In this document: piece after piece, positions 1,574 to 37,734 of the stretch
How the letters are laid out: each line of letters starts with the position of its first letter
Position numbering within the stretch: position 1 is the first letter of the stretch
Source: a virus
Lineage: Duplodnaviria; Caudoviricetes
Reading direction: 5' to 3' (one strand)
DNA length: 54,856 bases
IMG/VR virus record: IMGVR_UViG_3300042565_002302
Coordinates: 1-54,856 of that record
Notes under the pieces: generated by a model
The model's database searches: none
Told to the model about the DNA's origin: nothing
What the model saw: only the letters and a program-made list of their open reading frames with translations
Made by a program: the position numbers and the translations under genes

Positions 1574-2593
1574 TTACCAATAACCACTTGTACTACCTTT
1601 AACAAGTCCTGATCTATTGAGGCGGCAAGCCCAATATCCAGCCGTCATTCTATCTTTCTTCTTAGCGCAATTGTGTCTTGCGGCAAAACTCTTTCTTGCT
1701 TTAGAATTACCCACTCGTGCTTTTAAACCACCTTTTTTATCACCAAAAGTAATCTTTTTTATATTACCTGTTGATGGGTTTTTAACATATACAACATATT
1801 TCTTACCCGAACCGGTATTTCTTTTAATTTTATTTAATTTAGGGTGTTTCTTTTCTTTCTCCTCAATAATGCTCTCAATTAAACCTTTAGATAAATCAGT
1901 CAAATATTTATTCATTTCATTAGCATAAGTTTTACTTTTAACTGTCCCTGTATAATATTCTGAATTTTCAAAATCAATAAAGTTTTCATAAGCCAAATCA
2001 CCCCAACCTTTTTCTTTAAGATATTTATCAATTTCATCAATATCAATTTCATCTTTTATATTATCATCTTCATATTTACCACCATCGTATTCAATTAAAA
2101 ATACATCTAATGGTACAACTTCACCTCTAAATGTTCCGAATCTTCCTATATCAGTGCTTTCAAATAATTCTTCATCACTACTATCTAATTCAATTGATCC
2201 ACTATCATATAATCTTCTTGTTTCAGATAATAAATCAATATGGGCTTCACTACCTGGTCTATACACACTTTCATTAACAGATATACCATTTATTAAATGA
2301 TATTTTAATCCTTCACTAATTACTTTTTTCATACTTATACTTTCATTTACATCATTATTTCTTAATTCATCCAAATATTTTTCAATACCTTCTCTATCTT
2401 CACGATTAAATACTTTTAATAATTTAACGTTTTTAGTTGATATGGATTTGCGATCCCCACCTTTTTTTATATAAACCAATCTTTCATCCAAGGCGTGTAA
2501 TGGTACGTCTTGATACCTATATTTTTTATTAAAATAAGCCAATGGAATCATTATTTCTATTACAGCTGTTTTATTAGTCATATACATTTTCAT
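1574..2593 (-). CDS. conserved phage multidomain protein with basic C-terminal domain
   Basis: 339-aa ORF; C-terminal KKYVVYVKNP...KKITFGD...RKSFAARHNC...AGYWAC recalled as a conserved phage domain. Confidence 0.6.
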   Translation of the reverse strand: MKMYMTNKTAVIEIMIPLAYFNKKYRYQDVPLHALDERLVYIKKGGDRKSISTKNVKLLKVFNREDREGIEKYLDELRNNDVNESISMKKVISEGLKYHLINGISVNESVYRPGSEAHIDLLSETRRLYDSGSIELDSSDEELFESTDIGRFGTFRGEVVPLDVFLIEYDGGKYEDDNIKDEIDIDEIDKYLKEKGWGDLAYENFIDFENSEYYTGTVKSKTYANEMNKYLTDLSKGLIESIIEEKEKKHPKLNKIKRNTGSGKKYVVYVKNPSTGNIKKITFGDKKGGLKARVGNSKARKSFAARHNCAKKKDRMTAGYWACRLNRSGLVKGSTSGYW

Positions 2594-3962
2594 TATTTAC
2601 ATTCATATTTATTATATAATATTTTTTACCTTTATATGTATAAGTTATTGGTTCTGCTTTAGCGTCAATACAATATGTCGGATAATCTTTTAATAATCTA
2701 TCTAAATCAAAATAACCATCATAGATAAATAACATTCCAGGTAAACCATCAATATTACTATATTTTGGTGGTTGATTACTCGTTCCTTTATATTTATTCT
2801 CATCATAAAACCCAACCGGATCTTCCATAAATTCTTTATTCAAATCATTTAATTCGGATGATTTTTTAATTTCCTCATCGGTAAGATTATCAATATCATA
2901 TTCATAAAAAAATCTAAAACGACTACTATCAATCAACATATCATAAAATAAATCATCCCAAGAAAAATATTTTAAAATATTTTTTTCGCCAACACGTTTA
3001 ATTAAATTATTTGTTTTGGTTTTACTTGAATTTAAAACGTCACTACTATCAATATTCTCTATAATATCATCTATTGTTTCATCATTAACAACAATATATG
3101 CCCCAATAATACTATTAACCCTATTAATTTTTTTACGTAAATAAAATTGTGAGTCTTCAATAGACATAATTTCAGGGAAATAATTTTCACCAAGAGATTT
3201 AGACCAACTACCAAATACTTTAGCCATTAATTTTTTAGGATTATCAATGGTTTTATCTTGTAAATATTTTTTTATACTACTAGCAACTTTTTTTGGGTAT
3301 ATAATATCACCATTATATTCATTATATTCAATTCTATCCGTATCACTAAAACTAACATTTAATCTATTATCTATTGCATCATACCCTTGAACCTTACCAA
3401 AAACATCAACAAATAATGCGGTTTTATAATCATCACCATTACTACTCCTATTTAAGATAAAAAACAAACTACCATTTTCCATATAATTCTCATAAGTGCT
3501 ATCATCTGTCACACACCATTTAGTACCTTTACCATAATAACAAGAAGCTTCTGCTGTTGATGGGTATAATATGACAATACTATCGAATTCATCAACCATA
3601 TCAATATCATTCTTTAATTGTATCTTTCTGTTCGATCTCTGAAAAGCCTTTTCCGTTGCTACGGTAAATGAATCTAAGTCTTTATATGAGTATATATCGG
3701 TAGATAACTCAGCATTCTTAAATCTTTGTGGGTAGGTTTCTAATACAATTAAAGCATTTCCAACCTTACCCCAATATTCGTGATCGAAATTTTTAACATT
3801 CCTTAACCCAAACTCTTCAACAAATCTTTTATATAACCAATGAAGATATTTTTTATTTGGTGAAGGATCATAATCATATAATTCAGATATTAAATCCGAA
3901 ATAAATACATTTTCTTGTAAATTATATTTCTTTAAAAACTTTTCTAAGAATTTTTCTTCCAT
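2574..3962 (-). CDS. PcfJ-like domain protein, paralog of 11392..13179
   Basis: DPSPNKKYLHW and ASCYYGKGTKWCV motifs. Confidence 0.55.
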   Translation of the reverse strand: MEEKFLEKFLKKYNLQENVFISDLISELYDYDPSPNKKYLHWLYKRFVEEFGLRNVKNFDHEYWGKVGNALIVLETYPQRFKNAELSTDIYSYKDLDSFTVATEKAFQRSNRKIQLKNDIDMVDEFDSIVILYPSTAEASCYYGKGTKWCVTDDSTYENYMENGSLFFILNRSSNGDDYKTALFVDVFGKVQGYDAIDNRLNVSFSDTDRIEYNEYNGDIIYPKKVASSIKKYLQDKTIDNPKKLMAKVFGSWSKSLGENYFPEIMSIEDSQFYLRKKINRVNSIIGAYIVVNDETIDDIIENIDSSDVLNSSKTKTNNLIKRVGEKNILKYFSWDDLFYDMLIDSSRFRFFYEYDIDNLTDEEIKKSSELNDLNKEFMEDPVGFYDENKYKGTSNQPPKYSNIDGLPGMLFIYDGYFDLDRLLKDYPTYCIDAKAEPITYTYKGKKYYIINMNVNNENVYD

Positions 3963-4451: not shown

Positions 4452-7400
4452 TTATTTGTTTTTAAAGTGAGTTAACATTGCATAAACACCAGCGCTTTTT
4501 AAAATTGTCATAAATGCATCCATAAAATCAACATTTCCTAATAAACTATTTATAATATCCGAATAACCTGGCATTAAAGATGTAAACGCCACAATTGATA
4601 ACATCTCATTTTTGAAACCCTTTAATGATTTATTTTGTCTAAAATAAACAACAATCATAGCAATCGCTAAGTTTGTAATTTCAAAAGCATTTAATGGTTG
4701 AACTGCATACTCTTTAATTAAAGAACTAATATTTCTAATAAGTGCATTTATACCAGAACCAAATGAAGTTAAAAATCCTACATCTAATCCAATATTCTTT
4801 TTAAATTTTTTTAATATATCATCTACATTATCACTTATTTTACTCTCATTTAAACCTGTATACTCACTTTGTTTATATAATTCTTCAAATTTATCCCTAA
4901 CTTTTTTACTTCTCAATGGTATGGTTAAATCAAAATACATATGACCTAAAGGAGCATCTTCACCTATATCCCAACTTAAATTACTTAATATTCTATTTTT
5001 TAAATCATTAAAAACGTTTTCTTTTTCAGATAATTTCCCATCTTCCAAGTAATAATCATCGGAAAATACATCCCAATATATATTAAATAAGTTTGTTGTA
5101 TCACCACCATCCATATCACCTTCACCCCATCTGCCAGTCATATCACCAGTAGTTAAATCGTATTGATTTATTTTTTTACCATCAATAGTAGGTTGCATTT
5201 CATTCCACTCCTTTTTTCTTTCGTCAATTCTTTTTGGTGTGAATAATTTATTTTTTGATCGCTCAGATTCAGTTAACGGTATTCTTTTAACTAACTCACC
5301 ATTCTTATATAAACCCTTATACATTAATTGTCCATTATCAAAATACCATTCCCATATACCATCTCTTTCACCATTATTAAATGAACCCTTAAACCATAAT
5401 TTTCCATTATCAAAATATTTTTCCCAATAACCATCTCTTAAACCATTATTAAATGAACCCTTATAATCTAATTGTCCATTAAAATAATACCTCTCCCAAT
5501 AACCTTCTTTCTTACCATTATTAAATGAACCCTTATAATCTAATTGTCCATTATAGTGATATTCTTCCCAATAACCTTCTTTTTCTCCATTCTTATATGA
5601 ACCCTTAGACCGTAATTTTCCATCAGTATAATAATACCTCTCCCATATACCATCTTTTTCACCATTCTTATATGAACCCTTATAATCTAATTGTCCATTA
5701 AAATAATACCTCTCCCAATAACCTTCTTCTTTACCATTCTTATATGAACCCTTAGACCATAATTTTCCATTAAAATGATAAGCCTCCCATATACCTTCTT
5801 CTTTACCATTCTTATATGAACCCTTATACTCTAATTTTCCATTAGAATGATATCCTTCCCAATAACCTTCTTCTTTACCAGTATTAATATCATACTGATT
5901 AATACGTTCTCCATCTACGATGGGTTGATCCTTATTCCAATTAGCCCACCTGGAATCTTCTCCACTTAATTTACGAGGAATAAACAATTTCTTTTTTGGT
6001 TGTTCAGATTCGAAGATTTTATCATAAAATCTTTTAATTAATTCTCCATTCTTATATGAACACTTATACGCTAATTGTCCATTATCATAATAATACCATT
6101 TACATATGCCATCCTTTAAACCATTCTTATATGAACCCTTATACATTAATTGTCCATTACTCCAATATTCTTCCCAATAACCTTCTTTTTCTCCATTCTT
6201 ATATGAACCCTTAGACCATAATTTTCCATTATAGTGATATTCTTCCCAATAACCTTCTTTTTCTCCATTATTAAATGAACCCTTAAACCATAATTTTCCA
6301 TCAGTATAATAATATTCCCAATAACCTTCTTTTTCTCCATTCTTATATGAACCCTTATACTCTAATTTTCCATCCGAATAATATTCTTCCCAATAACCAT
6401 CTTTTTTACCGGTGTTAATATCATATTGATTAATTCTTAATCCATCTACGATGGGTTGTTCTTTATTCCATTGAGCCCATCTAGAATCTTCTCCACTTAA
6501 TTTACGAGGAATAAAGAGTTTTTTCTTTTCAGATTCATCTAATCTTTTAATTAATCCTCCATTCTTATATGAACCCTTATACCTTAATTGTCCATTACTC
6601 CAATATTCTTCCCATATACCATCTTTTTCTCCATTATTAAATGAACCCTTATAATCTAATTGTCCATTAGAATAATACCATTCCCATATACCATCTCTGT
6701 CACCATTCTTATATGAACCCTTATACCTTAATTTTCCATTACTCCAATACTCTTCCCAATAACCTTCTTCTTTACCATTCTTATATGAACCCTTAAAATC
6801 TAATTGTCCATTATAATGATAATATTCCCAATAACCATCTTTTTCACCATTCTTAAATGAACCCTTATAATATAATTGTCCATTATCATAATATTCCTCC
6901 CATATACCTTCTTTTTCTCCATTATTATATGAACCCTTATAATCTAATTGTCCATTATCAAAATACCATTCCCATATACCTTCTTTATTACCGGTATTAA
7001 TATCATATTGATTAATTCTTATACCATCTTTAATTGGTTGATCCTTATTCCAATCAGCCCATCTGGAATCTTCACCAGATATTTTACGAGGAATAAAGAG
7101 TTTTTTCTTTTCAGATTCATCTAATCTTTTAATTAATCCTCCATTCTTATATGAACCCTTATACATTAATTGTCCATTACTCCAATATTCTTCCCAATAA
7201 CCTTCTTTTTCTCCATTATTAAATGAACCCTTATACGCTAATTTTCCATTATAGTGATATTCTTCCCAATAACCATCTCTTAAACCATTCTTATATGAAC
7301 CCTTATAATCTAATTGTCCATTATCATAATATTCTTCCCAATAACCTTCTTTTTCTCCATTCTTATATGAACCCTTAGACCATAATTTTCCATTATCATA

Positions 7401-9458
7401 ATATTTTTCCCATATACCATCTCTATCACCATTCTTATATGAACCCTTAGACCATAATTTTCCATTATCGTGATAATACTCCCAATAACCTTCTTTTTCT
7501 CCATTCTTATATGAACCCTTATACTCTAATTTTCCATTATCATAATACCATTCCCATATACCTTCTTTCTTACCAGTATTAATATTATATTGATTAATTC
7601 TTAATCCATCTACGATGGGTTGATCCTTATTCCAATCAGACCATCTAGAATCTTCTCCACTTAATTTACGAGGAATAAAGAGTTTTTTCTTTTCAGATTC
7701 ATCTAATGTTTCAATGGTATATTCTTTATCGGTTGTTTCAAGTCCCAATTCATATATCTTATCCATTAAACCGCTTCTTCTCATAGTTTTAAAAACAAGA
7801 TTTTCAGTTGCCATCTCACCACCTTTATCCAAACCAGCTTTTCTATATTTCTTTATCTTATCTTTTATCATATCCAAAGCTTTTCTGGTTTCTTCATACT
7901 TACCATCTTTATATAATTCAACAATTCTATTATATTCACTTTCAAATTGTTTTACCTTCTTTTTAATGGTTTCCCTATCAATCTTAACGTCCTGTGGTTT
8001 TGGTTTTTTAATCCATTCATCATTCATTACAGAATATATACCAGTGCTTTCATGTGGTTCATCTTTATCCTGAGCATATAATTCAACATCATAACCTTTG
8101 ATTTTAATATCGTGATTGTCATTCCACACAGCTTTCTTAGCGTCAAAATATTTCTTGATTAATTCCTTATCATCAAACTTATTGAAGTCTATAAGAACAT
8201 GTAAATCCACGTCTGAATATTGACTCCAATTATAATTAGCTAAAGAACCTGTGAATATAATATCCTCAATAGGTGCTTCAACTTCCAATGTTTTATGAAA
8301 CTCCTGACCGATAGCAACTAATGTGTCTTTTATCTTCTTTTTTAATTTATCATCTTCATCCCACACTTTAGGGTTTAATTCCTTTTGTGGTTCAAATGAT
8401 TTTAATATCTCATCCTTGTTTTCTATTTGTTCATTTATATTCATATCAATAGGGATTAATTTTTTTCCAACATATTCAAATATCTGTTTAATTTTCACAT
8501 CCTTACCATTTATTATATTCACCTCTTTTTCGTGAGGATTTCCTTTTATATCAACACCCTCAATAGTAATACTATTTGGTTCTACATAACCCTCAATAAC
8601 AATTACCTTCTGTTTGTTTTTACCATAATATTGTTGGTTAATTTCAGCAACATCAATTACATTATTACGTGACGTTGTCCAATGATTACCCATATCTTTT
8701 AGATTAACCTCAGATAAATTATCTATAAATAAAACCCTATAAATATTACCACCATTTTCAATTAAATCCTCCACTTCCGATTCATACAACTCTAATTCCC
8801 AATTAGCCGTATTATCTGAACCATAATAATTGATCCAAGATTTTAATATCTCATCCTTGTTTTCCATTTGTTCTTTTATTATCATATTATCATAATCATC
8901 TTTCCAATCCATACTTTCCCTTACACTACCATCCTTATCATAAACGATATATGCGATTTTCTTAGCCATTTTATATATATCTTTACGTCTAATATCACCA
9001 TATTCAAAATATTCAATAGATAACCCATCGGGCTTACCATCAATATAATTTACAATTTTTTCCAATTGATTATTAAATGAGTAATACCATTTCCATATAC
9101 CATATTTTTTACCATCATCAAAACTACCAATTTCCCCTAAACTACCATTCATGTAATACATTTTCCATAAACCAGTAAACTCATTATTTTTTGTCTGACC
9201 ATCAAATTGGATTTTACCGTTTAAATAGAATGTTTGGTGTATCCCTTCGTACTCACCATCTTTATACCCTATTTTATACAATATTCTACCATTATTATCA
9301 TACATAATCCATAAACCATCTTTTCTACCGGTATTTACGTTATATTGATTAATACGTTCCCCATCAACTATCGGTTGTTCTTTATTCCATTGAGCCCATC
9401 TATTATCCTCACCAGATATATTACGAGGAATAAATAATTTCTTTTTTGCATCACCCAT
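4452..9458 (-). CDS. 1668-aa modular polyprotein: MORN-like module, ART-like domain, Pol-beta nucleotidyltransferase, four further MORN-like modules, C-terminal hydrophobic domain
   Basis: Repeated KKKLFIPR headers; 24-aa repeats; TGSLANYNWSQYSDVDLH NTase signature; IYR...HWTTS...EKEV ART-like motifs. Confidence 0.88.
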   Translation of the reverse strand: MGDAKKKLFIPRNISGEDNRWAQWNKEQPIVDGERINQYNVNTGRKDGLWIMYDNNGRILYKIGYKDGEYEGIHQTFYLNGKIQFDGQTKNNEFTGLWKMYYMNGSLGEIGSFDDGKKYGIWKWYYSFNNQLEKIVNYIDGKPDGLSIEYFEYGDIRRKDIYKMAKKIAYIVYDKDGSVRESMDWKDDYDNMIIKEQMENKDEILKSWINYYGSDNTANWELELYESEVEDLIENGGNIYRVLFIDNLSEVNLKDMGNHWTTSRNNVIDVAEINQQYYGKNKQKVIVIEGYVEPNSITIEGVDIKGNPHEKEVNIINGKDVKIKQIFEYVGKKLIPIDMNINEQIENKDEILKSFEPQKELNPKVWDEDDKLKKKIKDTLVAIGQEFHKTLEVEAPIEDIIFTGSLANYNWSQYSDVDLHVLIDFNKFDDKELIKKYFDAKKAVWNDNHDIKIKGYDVELYAQDKDEPHESTGIYSVMNDEWIKKPKPQDVKIDRETIKKKVKQFESEYNRIVELYKDGKYEETRKALDMIKDKIKKYRKAGLDKGGEMATENLVFKTMRRSGLMDKIYELGLETTDKEYTIETLDESEKKKLFIPRKLSGEDSRWSDWNKDQPIVDGLRINQYNINTGKKEGIWEWYYDNGKLEYKGSYKNGEKEGYWEYYHDNGKLWSKGSYKNGDRDGIWEKYYDNGKLWSKGSYKNGEKEGYWEEYYDNGQLDYKGSYKNGLRDGYWEEYHYNGKLAYKGSFNNGEKEGYWEEYWSNGQLMYKGSYKNGGLIKRLDESEKKKLFIPRKISGEDSRWADWNKDQPIKDGIRINQYDINTGNKEGIWEWYFDNGQLDYKGSYNNGEKEGIWEEYYDNGQLYYKGSFKNGEKDGYWEYYHYNGQLDFKGSYKNGKEEGYWEEYWSNGKLRYKGSYKNGDRDGIWEWYYSNGQLDYKGSFNNGEKDGIWEEYWSNGQLRYKGSYKNGGLIKRLDESEKKKLFIPRKLSGEDSRWAQWNKEQPIVDGLRINQYDINTGKKDGYWEEYYSDGKLEYKGSYKNGEKEGYWEYYYTDGKLWFKGSFNNGEKEGYWEEYHYNGKLWSKGSYKNGEKEGYWEEYWSNGQLMYKGSYKNGLKDGICKWYYYDNGQLAYKCSYKNGELIKRFYDKIFESEQPKKKLFIPRKLSGEDSRWANWNKDQPIVDGERINQYDINTGKEEGYWEGYHSNGKLEYKGSYKNGKEEGIWEAYHFNGKLWSKGSYKNGKEEGYWERYYFNGQLDYKGSYKNGEKDGIWERYYYTDGKLRSKGSYKNGEKEGYWEEYHYNGQLDYKGSFNNGKKEGYWERYYFNGQLDYKGSFNNGLRDGYWEKYFDNGKLWFKGSFNNGERDGIWEWYFDNGQLMYKGLYKNGELVKRIPLTESERSKNKLFTPKRIDERKKEWNEMQPTIDGKKINQYDLTTGDMTGRWGEGDMDGGDTTNLFNIYWDVFSDDYYLEDGKLSEKENVFNDLKNRILSNLSWDIGEDAPLGHMYFDLTIPLRSKKVRDKFEELYKQSEYTGLNESKISDNVDDILKKFKKNIGLDVGFLTSFGSGINALIRNISSLIKEYAVQPLNAFEITNLAIAMIVVYFRQNKSLKGFKNEMLSIVAFTSLMPGYSDIINSLLGNVDFMDAFMTILKSAGVYAMLTHFKNK
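5271..7700 (-). repeat. nested tandem repeats: 72-bp MORN units (6+6+5+8) within four header-delimited modules, two of them exactly 582 bp
   Basis: atgaaccctt recurs about every 72 bp; ESE junction codons begin (minus strand) at 7700, 7118, 6536, 6011, 5270. Confidence 0.95.
8398..8873. repeat. 35-bp direct repeat (8398-8432 and 8839-8873, 1 mismatch) flanking the ART-like domain
   Basis: gattttaatatctcatccttgttttc(t/c)atttgttc, encoding EQ(I/M)ENKDEILKS. Confidence 0.9.
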
Positions 9459-9520: not shown

Positions 9521-10348
9521 ATGAGCACAATTAGTTATTTCGGAAGTAAAAGTAAGATAGGTTCTTTCATTGAACCATTTTATCCAAAAAATATTAAAAC
9601 ATACGTAGAGCCATTTTCAGGGACTTTCCAATGTTATTTTCATATGGACTTAGAAAAGTATCCAAACTTAGAAAAAGTCGTTTATAATGACTTAAATAAG
9701 TATATTGTTAACCTATTTAAATGTAATAAACAATATAAAGAATTTTATGAATACGTTAAAGATATACCATCACAAGATCCAGAATTATTTAAACAATACC
9801 ACACAAAGTTATTCGGAGGTAATCACTATGATACTTTTGAAATGGGGGATTTTGATACTGCTACTGCTTATTCTTATGTGATGTGCCAAATTTTCTCAGG
9901 AACTAACCCTGAAAAAGCTAAGTTTGTAGATCTTAAAGGAAAATATACTTGTAAGTTCGATTCATTCAAGAATAAATTAATAAAGCAAAAAATGAATTCA
10001 CATATTGATAGAATTACCGATATTGAAATGATGGACTTCGCTGAACTTATTAAAAAATATGATACACCTGAAACATTATTTTATTTAGATCCACCATATA
10101 AAGGTAGAGAGTTTCAATACTTTAAAGGTGATGGTAATTTCGGTGATTTAGGTCATCAAAGAGTGGCTGATGTCCTTAAAGATATCAAAGGAAAATTTGT
10201 TTTATCTTATTACCATTTTGATGAATTAGATAAATGGTTTCCAAGAGATATTTATAAATGGGAATTTAAGGAATTTAATAAACCATCAGGCGCCTCAAAA
10301 GGTAAAACACAATCAAAGGCGCAAGAACTTTTAATTATGAACTACTAG
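9521..10348 (+). CDS. D12-class (Dam-like) N6-adenine DNA methyltransferase
   Basis: YFGSKSK, YVEPFSG, VYNDL, FYLDPPY, QELLIMNY motifs. Confidence 0.9.
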   Translation: MSTISYFGSKSKIGSFIEPFYPKNIKTYVEPFSGTFQCYFHMDLEKYPNLEKVVYNDLNKYIVNLFKCNKQYKEFYEYVKDIPSQDPELFKQYHTKLFGGNHYDTFEMGDFDTATAYSYVMCQIFSGTNPEKAKFVDLKGKYTCKFDSFKNKLIKQKMNSHIDRITDIEMMDFAELIKKYDTPETLFYLDPPYKGREFQYFKGDGNFGDLGHQRVADVLKDIKGKFVLSYYHFDELDKWFPRDIYKWEFKEFNKPSGASKGKTQSKAQELLIMNY

Positions 10349-10598: not shown

Positions 10599-11395
10599 AA
10601 AAACTTACAAAACAACAGCGTTATTATAGAAAAAATAAAGCTAAATACAGAAAGTGGAGAAGAAAACGAGTTAAACGTCTAGTCGAAAGCGGTGAAATGG
10701 CTAAGATTAATAAACTCAAAAAAAAAATACGCAATAAGAAAAAAGAAAACAAAAAAAGAAATAAAAGAAAAATAGAAAGAAAGAAAAACGCAATCTATTT
10801 TATAGCCACAATTAGGGGTAATAAACCATTTAAAATTTTTAATAGGTATGTCGATTATTCTTGGGCATCTAAAAAATGGGATACCATTTTAGAAGAACAA
10901 AAAAACTTATTTTATCCAGGTCTTAAATACCCCTTAATGTTTCTTTATAAAGTAGAACCAGGTGAAGAAAATACAATTACGCAAAGAAATAGTATAGGTA
11001 AAATTATTGAAACCAAAATACCTGGTTATAAAATCATATTTCAAGATATATTTTACAATGAAATTAAGATATATTTTAAAAACAAATCTGTTAGAGTTCC
11101 TGCTTATTTCCTTATTCAACTATTAGATATGAATAGTAATATTAAACAAGTATTTCTTATTAAAAATAAAATATGTATTGAGGATGAAGGTAAATACTTT
11201 TTATTCGTCTGCAATGATAAAAATGAAGCATCTTCTATTAAAAATAGATTAAGAGAAAAATATATGGAAACAGGTAAAACTAATGTTCTTTTCTTTAACG
11301 ATGTAAATACAATATCAATGAAAGAAGAAATCTACGATAATATAGTTAAACAAGGTATATGCGATTTAAAATATTTAAATAGGAGTGACAATTAA
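10589..11395 (+). CDS. hypothetical protein with highly basic N-terminus
   Basis: 268-aa ORF, K/R-rich first 70 aa. Confidence 0.65.
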   Translation: MALKKLTKQQRYYRKNKAKYRKWRRKRVKRLVESGEMAKINKLKKKIRNKKKENKKRNKRKIERKKNAIYFIATIRGNKPFKIFNRYVDYSWASKKWDTILEEQKNLFYPGLKYPLMFLYKVEPGEENTITQRNSIGKIIETKIPGYKIIFQDIFYNEIKIYFKNKSVRVPAYFLIQLLDMNSNIKQVFLIKNKICIEDEGKYFLFVCNDKNEASSIKNRLREKYMETGKTNVLFFNDVNTISMKEEIYDNIVKQGICDLKYLNRSDN

Positions 11396-13179
11396 TTATC
11401 ATCAAAAAGTTTGTAATTATACAATAAACTATAAAATTCATCAATATTGTTTAAAATGTATTTACTAAAACCATTTTTACTTTTTAATGTAACAGATATC
11501 GTTAAATCATCCATATCAATAGTATTTACCCTAAAATAAAAATCTTTGTTTCTTGGTAATTCGTACCATCGTTCAAGTTGATAATTTTTATTTATTTCAT
11601 TAAATATTTCTATATACTTGTTGAAGTTTTCATTTTCTTCGATATCATCTTTAATCTTTTCCAAGTTCCAATTCACTTCACGTTGAAACCTTTCTTCATC
11701 AAAAGCATCCCAATCAATCATTTCATATGAATTGTCCATCCAACCACCAATATTATCATCTTCAGTTATAGTCTTTAATAATGAATTAATTGTATTTTTT
11801 TTGGGTTGGTATTCGTCAAATAACTTAATTAGATTATTAACAGTTGTTTTATACATATAATAACAACTTTCACCTGATTTTTCAATACCATATTTTTCAA
11901 AATAATTACATAATTCTTCTTCAATAGTCTGTTTAGCACCTTCCTCAGCAGCTCTATTCATCTCTGTTTGGTAATCACTAATTATATTACTAATCCACCT
12001 ATCAAACATATCAGCTAAAGTTTTAGAAACAATAGTTCTTACCTCATCGTCACTAAAATCAGCATTAACATACTGAGGTAAAATGAATTTAAGTATTTCC
12101 CTTAATAATTTAATATTTTCATCATTAAATCTATCTACTATATAACCTTCATCCCATTCCGAATCAATATCCATAGGATAAAAATCATAATCATTATAAT
12201 AACGACTATCAATAATACTTAATAAGTAGTCATCACCATCAGATAAATCAAATAATTTTTTATAGTTATCTAACCCATCAAAATCAAACTTTATTACGGA
12301 TTTACCCCTATCTTTTTCATTCATAATAAATTTTGTAATATTATCAGAACCAATAATTTGATTTGAGTTTTCTTTACCATTGATAAAAGCCTTTAATAGA
12401 CTAACAATAGGTAATTGTTCGGTTAGTTCATTTATTAGGTTAGTTAACTCCGGAAATTCGTCATATAAAAAACCAATTCCTTTTTCAATATCAGCTGAAT
12501 TATATACGTATTTTTTTAGTTTACCACCATCTTTTTCCATATATAAAGCAGCCTTATCCCTAGGATAACGCTTATCAATAAAATAATATAAAATACCGTT
12601 ACTTGAATATTTTATAAAATTAGTTTCGCTTTCAGTTGATGATGTACACCATTTAGTTTCTTTACCGTAATAACAAGAAGCATCATATGTTAAAGGTCTA
12701 ACAACTAAAAAATTACTATCTTCAAATACTTTATCCACACCTTTTTTAGCTATTCTTTCTTTTTCAAACCTTGTTTTATTTTCTTCTAATATTTGTAACA
12801 TAGCGAGAAGATAAAAAGGTATCACATAAGCATTAATATCTTTTGGGTTTTTTGTTATTTTGTCAATATCAATAATATTTTGACCTTCAAATTTAACACC
12901 AGTTTCAATGAGTCTATTTACAAATTGATTTACAATATCATCATTAATTCTTTTATAATTTTTTTCAAAAGGAATGACAATTCTATTTATCATCTCTTCA
13001 ATCTTATCATAATCCTTAAACTTTAAAGAAGAGTCTAAATACTTACCAATCCACTCAGAATATTTACCTTGTGATGTTGGATCAACAGTAAACATCCTAT
13101 CAATGAATTCACCATCGGTAGGATATTTATTTTTTACTTTTTCAATTATTTCCTTTTTACCCTCTAATAAAACATTCAT
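11392..13179 (-). CDS. PcfJ-like domain protein with acidic C-terminal region
   Basis: DPTSQGKYSEW, PKDINAY, ASCYYGKETKWCTS, LYYFIDK. Confidence 0.6.
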   Translation of the reverse strand: MNVLLEGKKEIIEKVKNKYPTDGEFIDRMFTVDPTSQGKYSEWIGKYLDSSLKFKDYDKIEEMINRIVIPFEKNYKRINDDIVNQFVNRLIETGVKFEGQNIIDIDKITKNPKDINAYVIPFYLLAMLQILEENKTRFEKERIAKKGVDKVFEDSNFLVVRPLTYDASCYYGKETKWCTSSTESETNFIKYSSNGILYYFIDKRYPRDKAALYMEKDGGKLKKYVYNSADIEKGIGFLYDEFPELTNLINELTEQLPIVSLLKAFINGKENSNQIIGSDNITKFIMNEKDRGKSVIKFDFDGLDNYKKLFDLSDGDDYLLSIIDSRYYNDYDFYPMDIDSEWDEGYIVDRFNDENIKLLREILKFILPQYVNADFSDDEVRTIVSKTLADMFDRWISNIISDYQTEMNRAAEEGAKQTIEEELCNYFEKYGIEKSGESCYYMYKTTVNNLIKLFDEYQPKKNTINSLLKTITEDDNIGGWMDNSYEMIDWDAFDEERFQREVNWNLEKIKDDIEENENFNKYIEIFNEINKNYQLERWYELPRNKDFYFRVNTIDMDDLTISVTLKSKNGFSKYILNNIDEFYSLLYNYKLFDDN

Positions 13180-26119: not shown

Positions 26120-26860
26120 TTATTTTAATTTTTCTTCACTATATTTTACTTGTTCTAAACTTATTTCAGAACCAATGTAATTCATATTAAGGTTTTTACA
26201 AGCTAAAGCCGTTGTTCCTGTTCCCATAAATGGATCGTATACCAAATTACCCTCAGTTGAGTAAATTGATAATAATTTCTCACATAATTCAGTTGAATAC
26301 GTTGCTTTATTTAGATTATTACTACCATCATTATTCTTTGCAGTTATGAAATTGTCAATTATTTCATAATAGTTTTGCCCTTTAGGTGATGTTTTAACCA
26401 CTTTTTTATGACAATTAAAAGTTTTTAACTCATCTTTCCTACAAAAAATATAAATGAACTCAACAATCCTATTTAATCTATTATAAGATGCTGGATGTGG
26501 AATACTATTTGATTTCTTCCAAATAATAGTATCGGCAACCATAAAACTTGTATTTCCTATGATTGCCGAAACCAATAAATAAGGTAATGATGGAGTTTCA
26601 ATTGAATATGAAAAGTTGTATATTACCACACCATTAGGTTTCAATACCTTATCAAATAATTTGAATATATCTATTGTCCATTTAATGTATTCATCTTCAC
26701 TCTTCCAATCATTATAGGTGTCATATCTTGATTGTTTATCAGCGTAACCACCTTTCCTTTTTGTCATATTGTATGGTGGGGATGTTAATATCACATCAAC
26801 CGATTTATCAACCATTTTATCCATAGTCAATAAACAATCTTCATTATAAAGCTTATTCAT
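26120..26860 (-). CDS. beta-class N4-C/N6-A DNA methyltransferase
   Basis: TSPPYN motif IV, VYDPFMGTGTT motif I. Confidence 0.92.
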   Translation of the reverse strand: MNKLYNEDCLLTMDKMVDKSVDVILTSPPYNMTKRKGGYADKQSRYDTYNDWKSEDEYIKWTIDIFKLFDKVLKPNGVVIYNFSYSIETPSLPYLLVSAIIGNTSFMVADTIIWKKSNSIPHPASYNRLNRIVEFIYIFCRKDELKTFNCHKKVVKTSPKGQNYYEIIDNFITAKNNDGSNNLNKATYSTELCEKLLSIYSTEGNLVYDPFMGTGTTALACKNLNMNYIGSEISLEQVKYSEEKLK

Positions 26861-37254: not shown

Positions 37255-37734
37255 TTATATGGTTTTAGAAAAACTAACAACTTTTCTATTTTGATGTGTA
37301 AAAATAAAATCCATTTTAATACTATCAACCACACTATCAACTTCAATCTCTAAATCATTTATAACAAGATCTTTGGGATTGTGTTGAGATATTAAATAAT
37401 TTAAATAACTAGATATAGTATGGGAGTAATCTATCAAATCAGGATATTTAACATTATAATATAGTATTTTATTATCCAAATCTTCACCATTACTAATAAT
37501 AATTTTACCTTCATATCTAATAGCATTATCAATATCAGCATAATCTAAATCATATTCCCACAATTCATCTACTTTAATAATATATTTTAATGATTTAATA
37601 TTATTTTTAGTTAAAAAATTATTACTAGCATCTTTAACCATTTTTCCAAATTCAACAGATCTCTCGTCAATGTTTCTTGGGATGAAAAGTTTCTTTTTTT
37701 CTTCTCTTAATATTTTTTTAATAATATCTTTCAC
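37255..37734 (-). CDS. hypothetical protein with leader and KKKLFIPR header
   Basis: GTG start; MKDIIKKILREEKKKLFIPRNIDER. Confidence 0.65.
   Translation of the reverse strand: MKDIIKKILREEKKKLFIPRNIDERSVEFGKMVKDASNNFLTKNNIKSLKYIIKVDELWEYDLDYADIDNAIRYEGKIIISNGEDLDNKILYYNVKYPDLIDYSHTISSYLNYLISQHNPKDLVINDLEIEVDSVVDSIKMDFIFTHQNRKVVSFSKTI

Follow-up and report, generated by a model that had tools for sequence, protein, structure and literature searches.

Proteins built of MORN repeats bind their partners through an aromatic groove, as described for junctophilin (PMC8916002) and for MORN4 (as cited in PMC7725318), and in solved MORN proteins this groove is reported to be lined by the LxY and YEGEW positions (PMC7725318). 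YwqK of Bacillus subtilis is described as the immunity protein to the YwqJ deaminase toxin, with which it was purified in complex (bioRxiv 10.64898/2026.09.29.755374). In giant viruses, the MORN, ankyrin and F-box families are presented as strain-specific, tandemly duplicated genes whose products are assumed to be protein binders (PMC5995976, PMC5753266). Here we analyse the linear IMG/VR virus record IMGVR_UViG_3300042565_002302 (Duplodnaviria; Caudoviricetes), a stretch of 54,856 bp that is referred to below as the window. Its subject is a single open reading frame (ORF) of 1668 amino acids (aa), P0001, which carries four arrays of MORN_2 repeats with a nearly fixed frame and a few strongly variable positions. 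We propose, with a probability of about 0.6, that these arrays are recombination-shuffled, diversifying predicted binder modules in a modular, polyvalent-like phage protein. No description of hypervariable MORN arrays in phages was found among the literature matches listed.

Repeat units and variable columns

The Pfam family MORN_2 (PF07661) matches P0001 with an E-value of 6.8e-101 (318.6 bits against a cut-off of 29.6) over 15 stretches, and 35 unit matches are found across the window. The array consists of 25 units of 24 residues (72 bp) each, two of them with one extra Tyr, and the modules together with their leaders cover positions 5271-7706. The motif G[IY]WE-x-Y-xx-[ND]G[QK]L-xx-KGS[YF][KN]NG-xxx is fitted strictly by 22 of the 25 units. 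The three units that do not fit are those at aa 1117 (C and K changes and an extra Y), aa 1270 (an extra Y) and aa 1367 (L for S). Pairwise, the units are about 67% identical in protein and 80% identical in DNA.

The frame is conserved down to its choice of codons. AAG at column 15 and GGA at column 10 are rare, each making up 19% of its own codon family in the other ORFs of the window, and both are fixed in 25/25 units. Column 12 is TTA in 25/25 units and column 17 is TCA in 24/25, and the string AAGGGTTCA has 23 occurrences in the array and none in the remainder of the P0001 coding sequence. Variation is concentrated in columns 5, 7, 8, 13 and 14, with entropies of 1.2-2.6 bits. Columns 2, 11, 18 and 19 are two-state and columns 22-24 show low diversity. 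To quantify the pattern, nucleotide diversity was calculated over 32 units for codon positions 1, 2 and 3. The values were 0.48, 0.59 and 0.35 in the five variable columns and 0.035, 0.015 and 0.087 in the 12 scaffold columns, which places variable-column diversity at positions 1 and 2 at 5-7 times the third-position diversity of the scaffold. By the Nei-Gojobori method, the proportions of synonymous (pS) and non-synonymous (pN) differences were 0.13 and 0.02 in the scaffold, whereas pN reached 0.47 in the variable columns. The 43-codon leaders of the same modules gave a pS of 0.33 and a pN of 0.08. With a lower pS than the leaders, the repeat frame shows less variation than they do at silent sites. 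The five variable codons of each unit are near saturation with replacement changes.

The composition of the variable positions is distinctive. The 125 variable residues comprise 29% Y, 13% D, 12% W, 10% E and 10% S, with Y, W, F and H together at 54%. Column 7 is aromatic in all 25 units and column 14 in 20 of them; columns 5, 8 and 13 are chemically free. An initial annotation, made from the DNA letters alone, had counted 25 units in modules of 6, 6, 5 and 8, had called the scaffold near-identical even at synonymous bases and had listed the alleles of three hypervariable sites. The unit count, the codon uniformity and all three allele lists agree with our data. The concentration of variation in sites 1, 2 and 3 also stands, in the refined form of five columns (5; 7, 8; 13, 14) accompanied by the two-state and low-diversity columns.

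Reassortment of half-unit cassettes

The codons reveal how the alleles have spread. At site 3 each of the 11 amino-acid states has a single codon version, and the same is true for 9 of 11 states at site 2. Without exception, the pair W-S is coded TGG AGT when it stands at site 2 and TGG TCT when it stands at site 3, and this constancy per site indicates that the alleles were copied, not re-invented. Many alleles of the same column differ by one first- or second-position change, which suggests that point mutation makes alleles while copying spreads and recombines them.

Linkage is confined to neighbouring sites. Site 1 is linked with site 2 (Cramer's V 0.81) and column 11 with site 3 (0.86), and none of 2000 shuffles gave values as high (p<0.0005). 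The association between site 2 and site 3 (p 0.35) and that between site 1 and site 3 (p 0.46) were no better than random. All four gametes are present in 74 of 120 biallelic site pairs, corresponding to a minimum (Rm) of at least 7 recombination or recurrent-mutation events within 72 nucleotides (nt). As compared with shuffles of half-unit cassettes, identical runs of at least 50 nt are more numerous (10 observed, 5.3 in the shuffles, P 0.03) and the longest run is somewhat longer (84 nt as against 67 nt, P 0.078). Near-random pairing and a modest excess of runs thus speak for a near-free assortment of half units, with a modest trace of recent multi-cassette copying.

The same cassettes are found in a second gene of the window. 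The leader of P0002, a paralogue cut by the contig end, as well as its scaffold codons and cassettes are those of P0001. The P0001 unit at aa 1222 recurs in P0002 with 72/72 bases identical, and exact runs of 89 and 70 nt are common to the two genes.

Differences between strains

Two proteins from two independent metagenome sources, P0006 and P0007, allowed a comparison of close relatives, which was made on proteins only. Against P0001 they are identical at 584 of 585 N-terminal residues and at 247 of 267 residues of the C-terminal block, and they carry 12 units in two MORN modules as against 25 units in four. In the first three collinear units of module 1, P0001 and P0006 differ at 7/15 hypervariable, 9/21 semi-variable and 1/36 scaffold positions, so that 16 of the 17 differences lie in variable or semi-variable columns. 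The junction and leader of the same module differ at 4/48 positions. P0006 and P0007 themselves differ at 32 positions, of which the MORN part accounts for 25, the C-terminal part for 7 and the N-terminal 585 residues for 0. Seventeen of these differences fall within one patch of 34 residues, which looks like a replaced tract. The degenerate MORN module at aa 1-165 is identical in P0001 and P0006, and therefore not every MORN module is variable.

Orthologues whose N-terminal core is 84-100% identical have lengths of 935-1256 aa, as compared with 1668 aa for P0001, and the order of their blocks varies: a block with the signature RWGxGD comes first or last, 1-3 short MORN modules are present, and a block of unknown fold (the X block) is present or absent. 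At the DNA level, viral contig scans gave no close relatives, and one metagenome scan gave two loci, L014 and L015, and not the contigs of P0006 and P0007. L014 is syntenic with the window (methyltransferase, big gene and three conserved downstream genes) at 81-87% DNA identity, and its big gene, of 980 aa, is almost devoid of the MORN array. L015 has 94% DNA identity at the gene start.

The initial annotation had held that the same codon blocks recur in different combinations, pairing HY with AY, DF, WS and DY and pairing WS with MY and RY, and had proposed recombination or gene conversion between units. The pairings are as described, the single-codon alleles and four-gamete counts bear out the reuse, and the 34-residue patch and the difference between four modules in one strain and two in the other fit well with the proposed exchange.

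Predicted structure of a module

Then, where do the variable columns lie in the folded protein? An AlphaFold2 model of module 1 was computed from an alignment of 11 rows, with a mean predicted local distance difference test score (pLDDT) of 84.3 and a predicted template modelling score of 0.75. The pLDDT was 95-98 over the six units, about 58 over residues 21-40 and below 50 over the first 20 residues, which comprise the junction and the tag. In all six units, the model places a strand at columns 22-24 and 1-6, a loop at columns 7-11, a return strand at columns 12-19 and a tight N-G turn at columns 20-21. The five variable columns are predicted to gather at the loop-side rim, with columns 7 and 8 in the loop, column 5 two positions before it and columns 13 and 14 two and three positions after it. 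The semi-variable columns 18, 19 and 22-24 would lie on the opposite, tight-turn rim. The initial annotation had raised the prospect that the variable residues share one face; in the model they cluster on one rim of the predicted sheet, probably wrapping over its edge. Judging from strand parity, columns 5 and 14 should be on the face of the conserved W3, L12 and Y18, and column 13 on the other face.

A Foldseek search with the model gave MORN1, radial-spoke MORN proteins and junctophilins as the best matches (E 4e-8 to 1e-4), together with SET7/9 and OspA, and a profile matched chains of SET7/9, MORN4 and MORN1. The predicted structure is a MORN fold, that is, consecutive beta-hairpins in one elongated twisted sheet. 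In the profile alignment to SET7/9, the LxY and YEGEW positions have columns 5, 7 and 14 as their counterparts.

Viral arrays and arrays of prokaryote assemblies

We compared the window with 15 viral loci of at least 6 units each, four of which come from one contig, and with 32 loci from prokaryote genome assemblies. The units were chosen by a pattern that fixes some scaffold residues, which biases amino-acid conservation and leaves silent third positions unbiased. In 15/15 viral loci, the diversity at positions 1-2 of the variable columns exceeded the third-position diversity of the scaffold. Variable-column diversity was 0.52 in the window and had a median of about 0.55 in both the viral and the prokaryote loci. 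The third-position diversity of the scaffold, in contrast, was 0.07 in the window, with a median of 0.18 in the viral loci and of 0.51 in the prokaryote loci. With equal diversity in the variable columns and lower diversity in the scaffold, the viral arrays are distinguished by a young or homogenised frame. A further example is the 115.7-kb record L011 (G001), in which 149 MORN_2 unit matches lie within about 25 kb (approximately 90,000-115,500) in small tandem genes. The 17 units of four of its ORFs have a frozen scaffold of their own (AAC 16/17, GGA 16/17) and the same variable columns as P0001.

Organization of P0001 and its surroundings

The blocks of P0001 and two related ORFs are given in Table 1. 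The reading frame is open across 5 kb. Neither a signal peptide nor a lytic domain is present in P0001, Pfam reports only MORN_2 and a sub-threshold NTP_transf_2 match, and none of the recognised virion genes is a neighbour of the P0001 gene.

Table 1. Positions of P0001, of its blocks and of two ORFs with related elements in the window.
Feature	Position	Strand	Remarks
Whole ORF P0001, modular protein	4452..9458	-	1668 aa
N-terminal KKKLFIPR tag and degenerate MORN module, aa 1-165	8964..9458	-	165/165 identical to P0006
X block, fold unknown, aa 199-345	8424..8864	-	flanked by direct repeat ENKDEILKS (41/54 nt)
Pol-beta-type nucleotidyltransferase block (GS..SDxD), aa 346-584	7707..8423	-	phrog_36119
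MORN module 1, aa 585-778	7125..7706	-	junction/leader, then 6 units
MORN module 2, aa 779-972	6543..7124	-	junction/leader, then 6 units
MORN module 3, aa 973-1149	6012..6542	-	junction/leader, then 5 units, the last one irregular
MORN module 4, aa 1150-1396	5271..6011	-	junction/leader, then 8 units
Sixth leader-like tag, RWGxGD block and C-terminal block, aa 1397-1668	4455..5270	-	lineage-restricted
Truncated paralogue P0002	3..887	-	at least 2 leader+MORN modules, codon cassettes as in P0001
Free-standing 159-aa ORF	37255..37734	-	N-terminal ..L-R-E-E-KKKLFIPR tag before an unrelated domain

Every MORN module opens with a junction and leader of the form ..[LI]xES(E..)KKKLFIPRK.., followed by about 35 conserved residues, and the KKKLFIPR tag also heads non-MORN blocks. 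In P0001 and 14 relatives, the junction form [LI]-x-E-[SN](..)KK(G)KLFIPR is found ahead of blocks of every type. With the permissive pattern [LIV]xE[SNA], a match lies within 18 residues before 54 of the 55 internal KLFIPR leaders of these 15 family proteins, whichever block precedes. P0002 and P0221, which are free-standing genes, likewise begin with junction motif and tag, and the 159-aa ORF, which adjoins large ORFs without a family match, starts with ..ILREEKKKLFIPRNIDER.., the junction-plus-tag of the modules. The conserved junction may function in cleavage, as a joint for recombination, or in both ways. Near 6028 and 9447, a MORN module end is joined in contigs of three sequencing runs to the leader at the N-terminus of P0001, with 24 bases read as PLTESEEQ in between, and another arrangement or a paralogue is therefore present in the same lakes.

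The nucleotidyltransferase block matches its PHROG family at an E-value of 3e-49 and viral NTP_transf_2-like Atlas clusters. Its best PDB sequence match, the adenylyltransferase domain of DrrA, is weak (E 0.034), and although the block was modelled with confidence, Foldseek gave no match at E <= 0.001 and only weak rows of Pol-beta type. We assign the block to no subfamily. The block occurs alone in many phages, and in other long phage proteins its homologues are fused to M23, Amidase_2, VanY and PG_binding domains and also to ParB, Amidoligase_2, NUDIX and ART-PolyVal domains. The X block has no match in a PDB sequence search. It is bounded by the direct repeats near 8398-8446 and 8839-8887, and it is missing from L015 (exactly between the flanking repeats) and from the orthologues P0008, P0009, P0012 and P0015, which looks like insertion or deletion through recombination at the flanking repeat. 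The C-terminal block is weakly hydrophobic, with a Kyte-Doolittle maximum of 1.49. A search of 1.84 billion proteins with this block matched 23 representative clusters, most of them via the leader part only; the best Atlas score (0.78) gave no lead and a PDB sequence search gave no match. A resemblance to the helix that precedes the lysozyme of P0311, guessed by eye, found no support in BLASTP.

Small relatives of P0002 number 561 at E <= 1e-20; among the 120 listed, at least 10 have a hydrophobic helix and a GH24 lysozyme at their C-terminal end. A 643-aa relative with the same ending, L034:1453-3384, consists of a leader-junction-leader start, two MORN modules, the helix and the lysozyme; the start is a probable scar of module deletion. 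Databases label some relatives as 'YwqK family antitoxin'.

The record has a completeness estimate of about 17% and a G+C content of 26-30%. Its phage genes include those for a Lon-like protease, a sigma factor, an SbcC-like protein, an RNA ligase, a CCA-type transferase, two DNA methyltransferases and gp25-like and wedge baseplate proteins. The nearest relatives of the Lon-like protease are in uncultured phages of 634-642 kb (55% similarity). The methyltransferase genes lie at 9521-10348 (+) and 26120-26860 (-), the former being a D12-class adenine methylase that is divergent from the P0001 ORF and syntenic in L014 and L015. Two ORFs, at 2574-3962 (-) (462 aa) and 11392-13179 (-) (595 aa), match the same approximately 95 residues of phrog_17056 (unknown function) and are likely paralogues flanking the MORN locus. 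A PADLOC search for defence systems gave no match, a promoter and terminator scan was uninformative, with fewer promoter-like sites than in shuffles, and the prophage record BK070118.1 yielded no functional context.

Public runs with this region are nearly all lake or freshwater metagenomes. Host inference from the MORN unit type failed, because the unit type occurs in metagenome-assembled genomes of many phyla and no host can be deduced from it. Two contigs of a single-cell assembly labelled Nitrosomonadaceae, L085 and L075, have modules 58-60% identical to the query, and L085 is the sole locus among the 32 from genome assemblies with a scaffold third-position diversity below 0.15 (0.14). L085 may be a phage contig inside an infected cell and hence a hint at a host.

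A model for diversification

We suggest that the four arrays serve for binding, as self-contained modules of MORN_2 beta-hairpin repeats. Recent unit duplication and gene conversion would keep the frame uniform, while the residues round the 5-residue hairpin loop (columns 5, 7, 8, 13 and 14) would diversify quickly. New surfaces could arise in two ways: from point changes at codon positions 1 and 2, and from exchange among 72-bp units by homologous recombination or conversion, whether the units belong to the same gene, to paralogues or to co-infecting strains. Such recombination would reassort two half-unit cassettes (columns 2-8 and 11-14), change the number of units, and add or remove whole modules at the conserved junction. 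The modules would then be beads in a chain with the Pol-beta-type nucleotidyltransferase and a lineage-specific C-terminal block.

If the model is right, the rim presumably binds something and selection presumably stands behind the diversity. As for the target, host proteins, including defence or toxin proteins, are our tentative first choice, held at somewhat less than an even chance; envelope components are a distinctly weaker candidate. The neutralisation of host defence proteins, suggested in the initial annotation, is one candidate role among several. Protein targets are favoured because of the YwqK precedent and the MORN structures with a groove-bound partner, and an envelope target is kept in play because relatives are fused to lysozymes.

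Alternative explanations

If the envelope or its glycans were the target, the modules would be adhesin or cell-wall-binding repeats of a virion- or lysis-associated protein, and their variability would track the host surface. This we consider rather doubtful as the general explanation. Relatives with the same leader and modules (P0004, L034 and the others counted above) end in the helix and GH24 lysozyme, P0049 combines MORN-like repeats with a phage tail lysozyme domain, the fusions of nucleotidyltransferase homologues to M23, Amidase_2, VanY and PG_binding point the same way, and an NCBIfam adhesin family is matched weakly, at 56.9 bits where the cut-off is 250. The variable residues are also rich in aromatic, acidic and hydroxyl side chains, and aromatic together with acidic or hydroxyl side chains suit sugar binding as well. 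P0001 itself, however, lacks both signal peptide and lytic domain, the MORN modules of the lysozyme fusions lie N-terminal to the hydrophobic helix and would be cytoplasmic if that helix is a membrane anchor, and the solved MORN complexes described in PMC7725318 and PMC8916002 bind peptides or helices, not sugars. A different proposal, compatible with the binder-module explanation and adding to it a delivery route, is that P0001 is a head-cargo polyprotein: loaded into the capsid and cut at its [LI]-x-E junctions by a head protease of the T4 type, it would be injected with the DNA as MORN binders and a nucleotidyltransferase. L/I-x-E is the cleavage motif of T4 gp21. The junction pattern before 54 of 55 leaders, the motif and tag at the N-termini of free-standing P0002 and P0221, the pLDDT below 50 of junction and tag, and the variable block order of relatives all agree with cleavage, and baseplate genes (gp25-like and wedge) are present in the window. 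The nearest large phage by Lon (55%) has a head maturation protease (phrog_207, E 2.6e-30), of which the Peptidase_S77 match is weak (E 1e-4, below cut-off), and the fusions of nucleotidyltransferase homologues to ART-PolyVal, ParB and Amidoligase_2 are typical of polyvalent proteins as described in PMC5512222. Set against this, the window, which is about 17% of the genome, holds no head protease, the regular expression is permissive within a linker rich in E and S, the P0001 gene lies more than 28 kb from structural-looking genes, and MORN is not mentioned in the main text of PMC5512222. We thus regard the head-cargo proposal as unlikely. More specific and more improbable still is a version in which the capsid-loaded polyprotein is cut at every [LI]xE into the nucleotidyltransferase and at least 4 MORN binders, a strain-specific panel, shuffled by recombination and made in advance, that would bind host proteins, for example defence effectors, and disarm them during the first minutes after infection.

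Three further alternatives, neutral expansion, mis-assembly and mutagenesis by a retroelement, all fall behind the binder-module explanation in likelihood. A young repeat might have expanded recently by slippage or duplication as a spacer or rod, with the variable columns as an unconstrained surface without function. Repeat arrays do expand readily, the identity of the scaffold indicates a young age, and the positions of greatest variability in cellular MORN_2 arrays are the same. A young array, however, predicts few differences, whereas non-synonymous diversity is 0.48-0.59 next to a scaffold value of 0.087 and a leader pS of 0.33. An aromatic share of 54% is not the composition of a drifted surface, 16 of 17 differences between near-identical strains fall in variable or semi-variable columns of collinear units, and the pattern is repeated in independent viral lineages, all of which makes neutral expansion improbable. 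The assembly calls for similar attention, as the array could be a chimeric path through reads of several strains and paralogues. Logan contigs from four lake-water runs are exact at the flanks and all break at 5288 and 7678, alternative joints exist, the summed depth within the array is 5-15 times that of the flanks, and a long-read study reports a 37-fold enrichment of MORN repeats in long reads as compared with assemblies (PMC9238414). Exact repeats measure at most 82 nt within the array and 89 nt against P0002, lengths that an assembly with long k-mers can bridge. The frame remains open over 5 kb, the independent assemblies of P0006, P0007 and L015 hold arrays of the same kind, and the unit-level statistics are independent of unit order; a chimera is accordingly a very unlikely source of the pattern. 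Finally, the sharp confinement of the variation to a few codons would be expected if a diversity-generating retroelement or a similar programmed system wrote them, an idea to which we give next to no weight. RVT_1 has no match in the window (about 17% of the genome) and no template copy is evident; the variable bases include all four letters at codon positions 1, 2 and 3 and are not adenine-specific, and alleles recur with identical codons, indicating copying and not fresh mutation. The initial annotation had called the array antibody-like. Its fixed scaffold and concentrated variation hold, while the antibody label is a mere analogy and the window has no reverse transcriptase.

Several observations weigh against the binder-module explanation. 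Columns 7 and 14 are aromatic in 25/25 and 20/25 units and are thus constrained, not free. The same variable columns are also the least conserved in cellular MORN_2 arrays, and lack of constraint therefore explains part of the pattern. The linked pairs of variable sites are adjacent in DNA and perhaps also in the fold, for which reason structural coupling could mimic linkage, and the excess of long tracts over shuffles is modest in both count (P 0.03) and maximum (P 0.078). As no contig in the four runs spans the array, the unit order could be partly chimeric. The comparison of P0006 and P0007 is at the protein level, and the facing of the side chains was read from strand parity alone.

Comparison with known systems

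The predicted module resembles the solved MORN proteins (MORN1, 6t6q, 6t69 and 6t4d; junctophilins, 7rw4 and 7rxe; MORN4, 6jle; SET7/9, 1h3i) in its twisted single sheet of hairpins. It differs in its 24-residue unit, where a tight N-G turn stands instead of their 6-residue connecting loop, and in that W replaces the second G of GxG. The arrays of P0001 are packaged as capped modules, four times repeated, and their units are about 67% identical to each other, as compared with a median of 28% in sampled cellular MORN_2 proteins. A statement on MORN repeats in endolysins (PMC9238414) was not used, as it cites a commentary on MORN4.

The YwqK-family immunity proteins belong to the same MORN_2 repeat family and, as described for the YwqJ complex, provide a precedent for a neutralising MORN_2 binder. 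Unlike them, P0001 has no adjacent toxin gene by PHROGs or Pfam, and it is a multidomain protein of 1668 aa and not a small immunity gene; the YwqK-like role put forward in the initial annotation does not hold up in this respect. The MORN, ankyrin and F-box families of giant viruses are many separate genes in viruses of eukaryotes, whereas the P0001 modules are fused in one phage protein with an enzyme and a junction. Neither a codon-frozen scaffold nor cassette reassortment figures in the accounts of these families available in PMC5995976 and PMC5753266.

As a long chain of unrelated, rearrangeable blocks, P0001 has the architecture described for polyvalent proteins (Iyer et al. 2017, PMC5512222), a source that lists lysozyme among the phage-type polyvalent domains. 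P0001 is unlike them in that Pfam finds none of the hallmark domains (zincin-like peptidase, ART, ParB) in it and in that most of the chain consists of predicted binder repeats, not enzymes.

TAL effector repeats and designed repeat libraries also combine repeats that are near-identical in DNA with a few variable residues that set specificity, and recombination makes the combinations. They are an analogy to the P0001 array only, as the fold is unrelated, and the P0001 modules, unlike TAL effectors, show no sign of a code of one unit for one ligand element or of a link to nucleic acids. If targets are found, the arrays would mark in lakes a rapidly shifting front between phages and their hosts, and they would offer a natural beta-sheet scaffold for binder design. 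What is special in the viral arrays is the young, homogenised scaffold and not the variability of the columns, and this scaffold points to fast turnover. A fixed frame with a few variable residues is a route to binders taken by plants, pathogens, giant viruses and protein engineers alike. The phage array is an extreme and unusually legible case of it, with 25 units about 80% identical in DNA and five variable columns that are predicted to lie on one rim.

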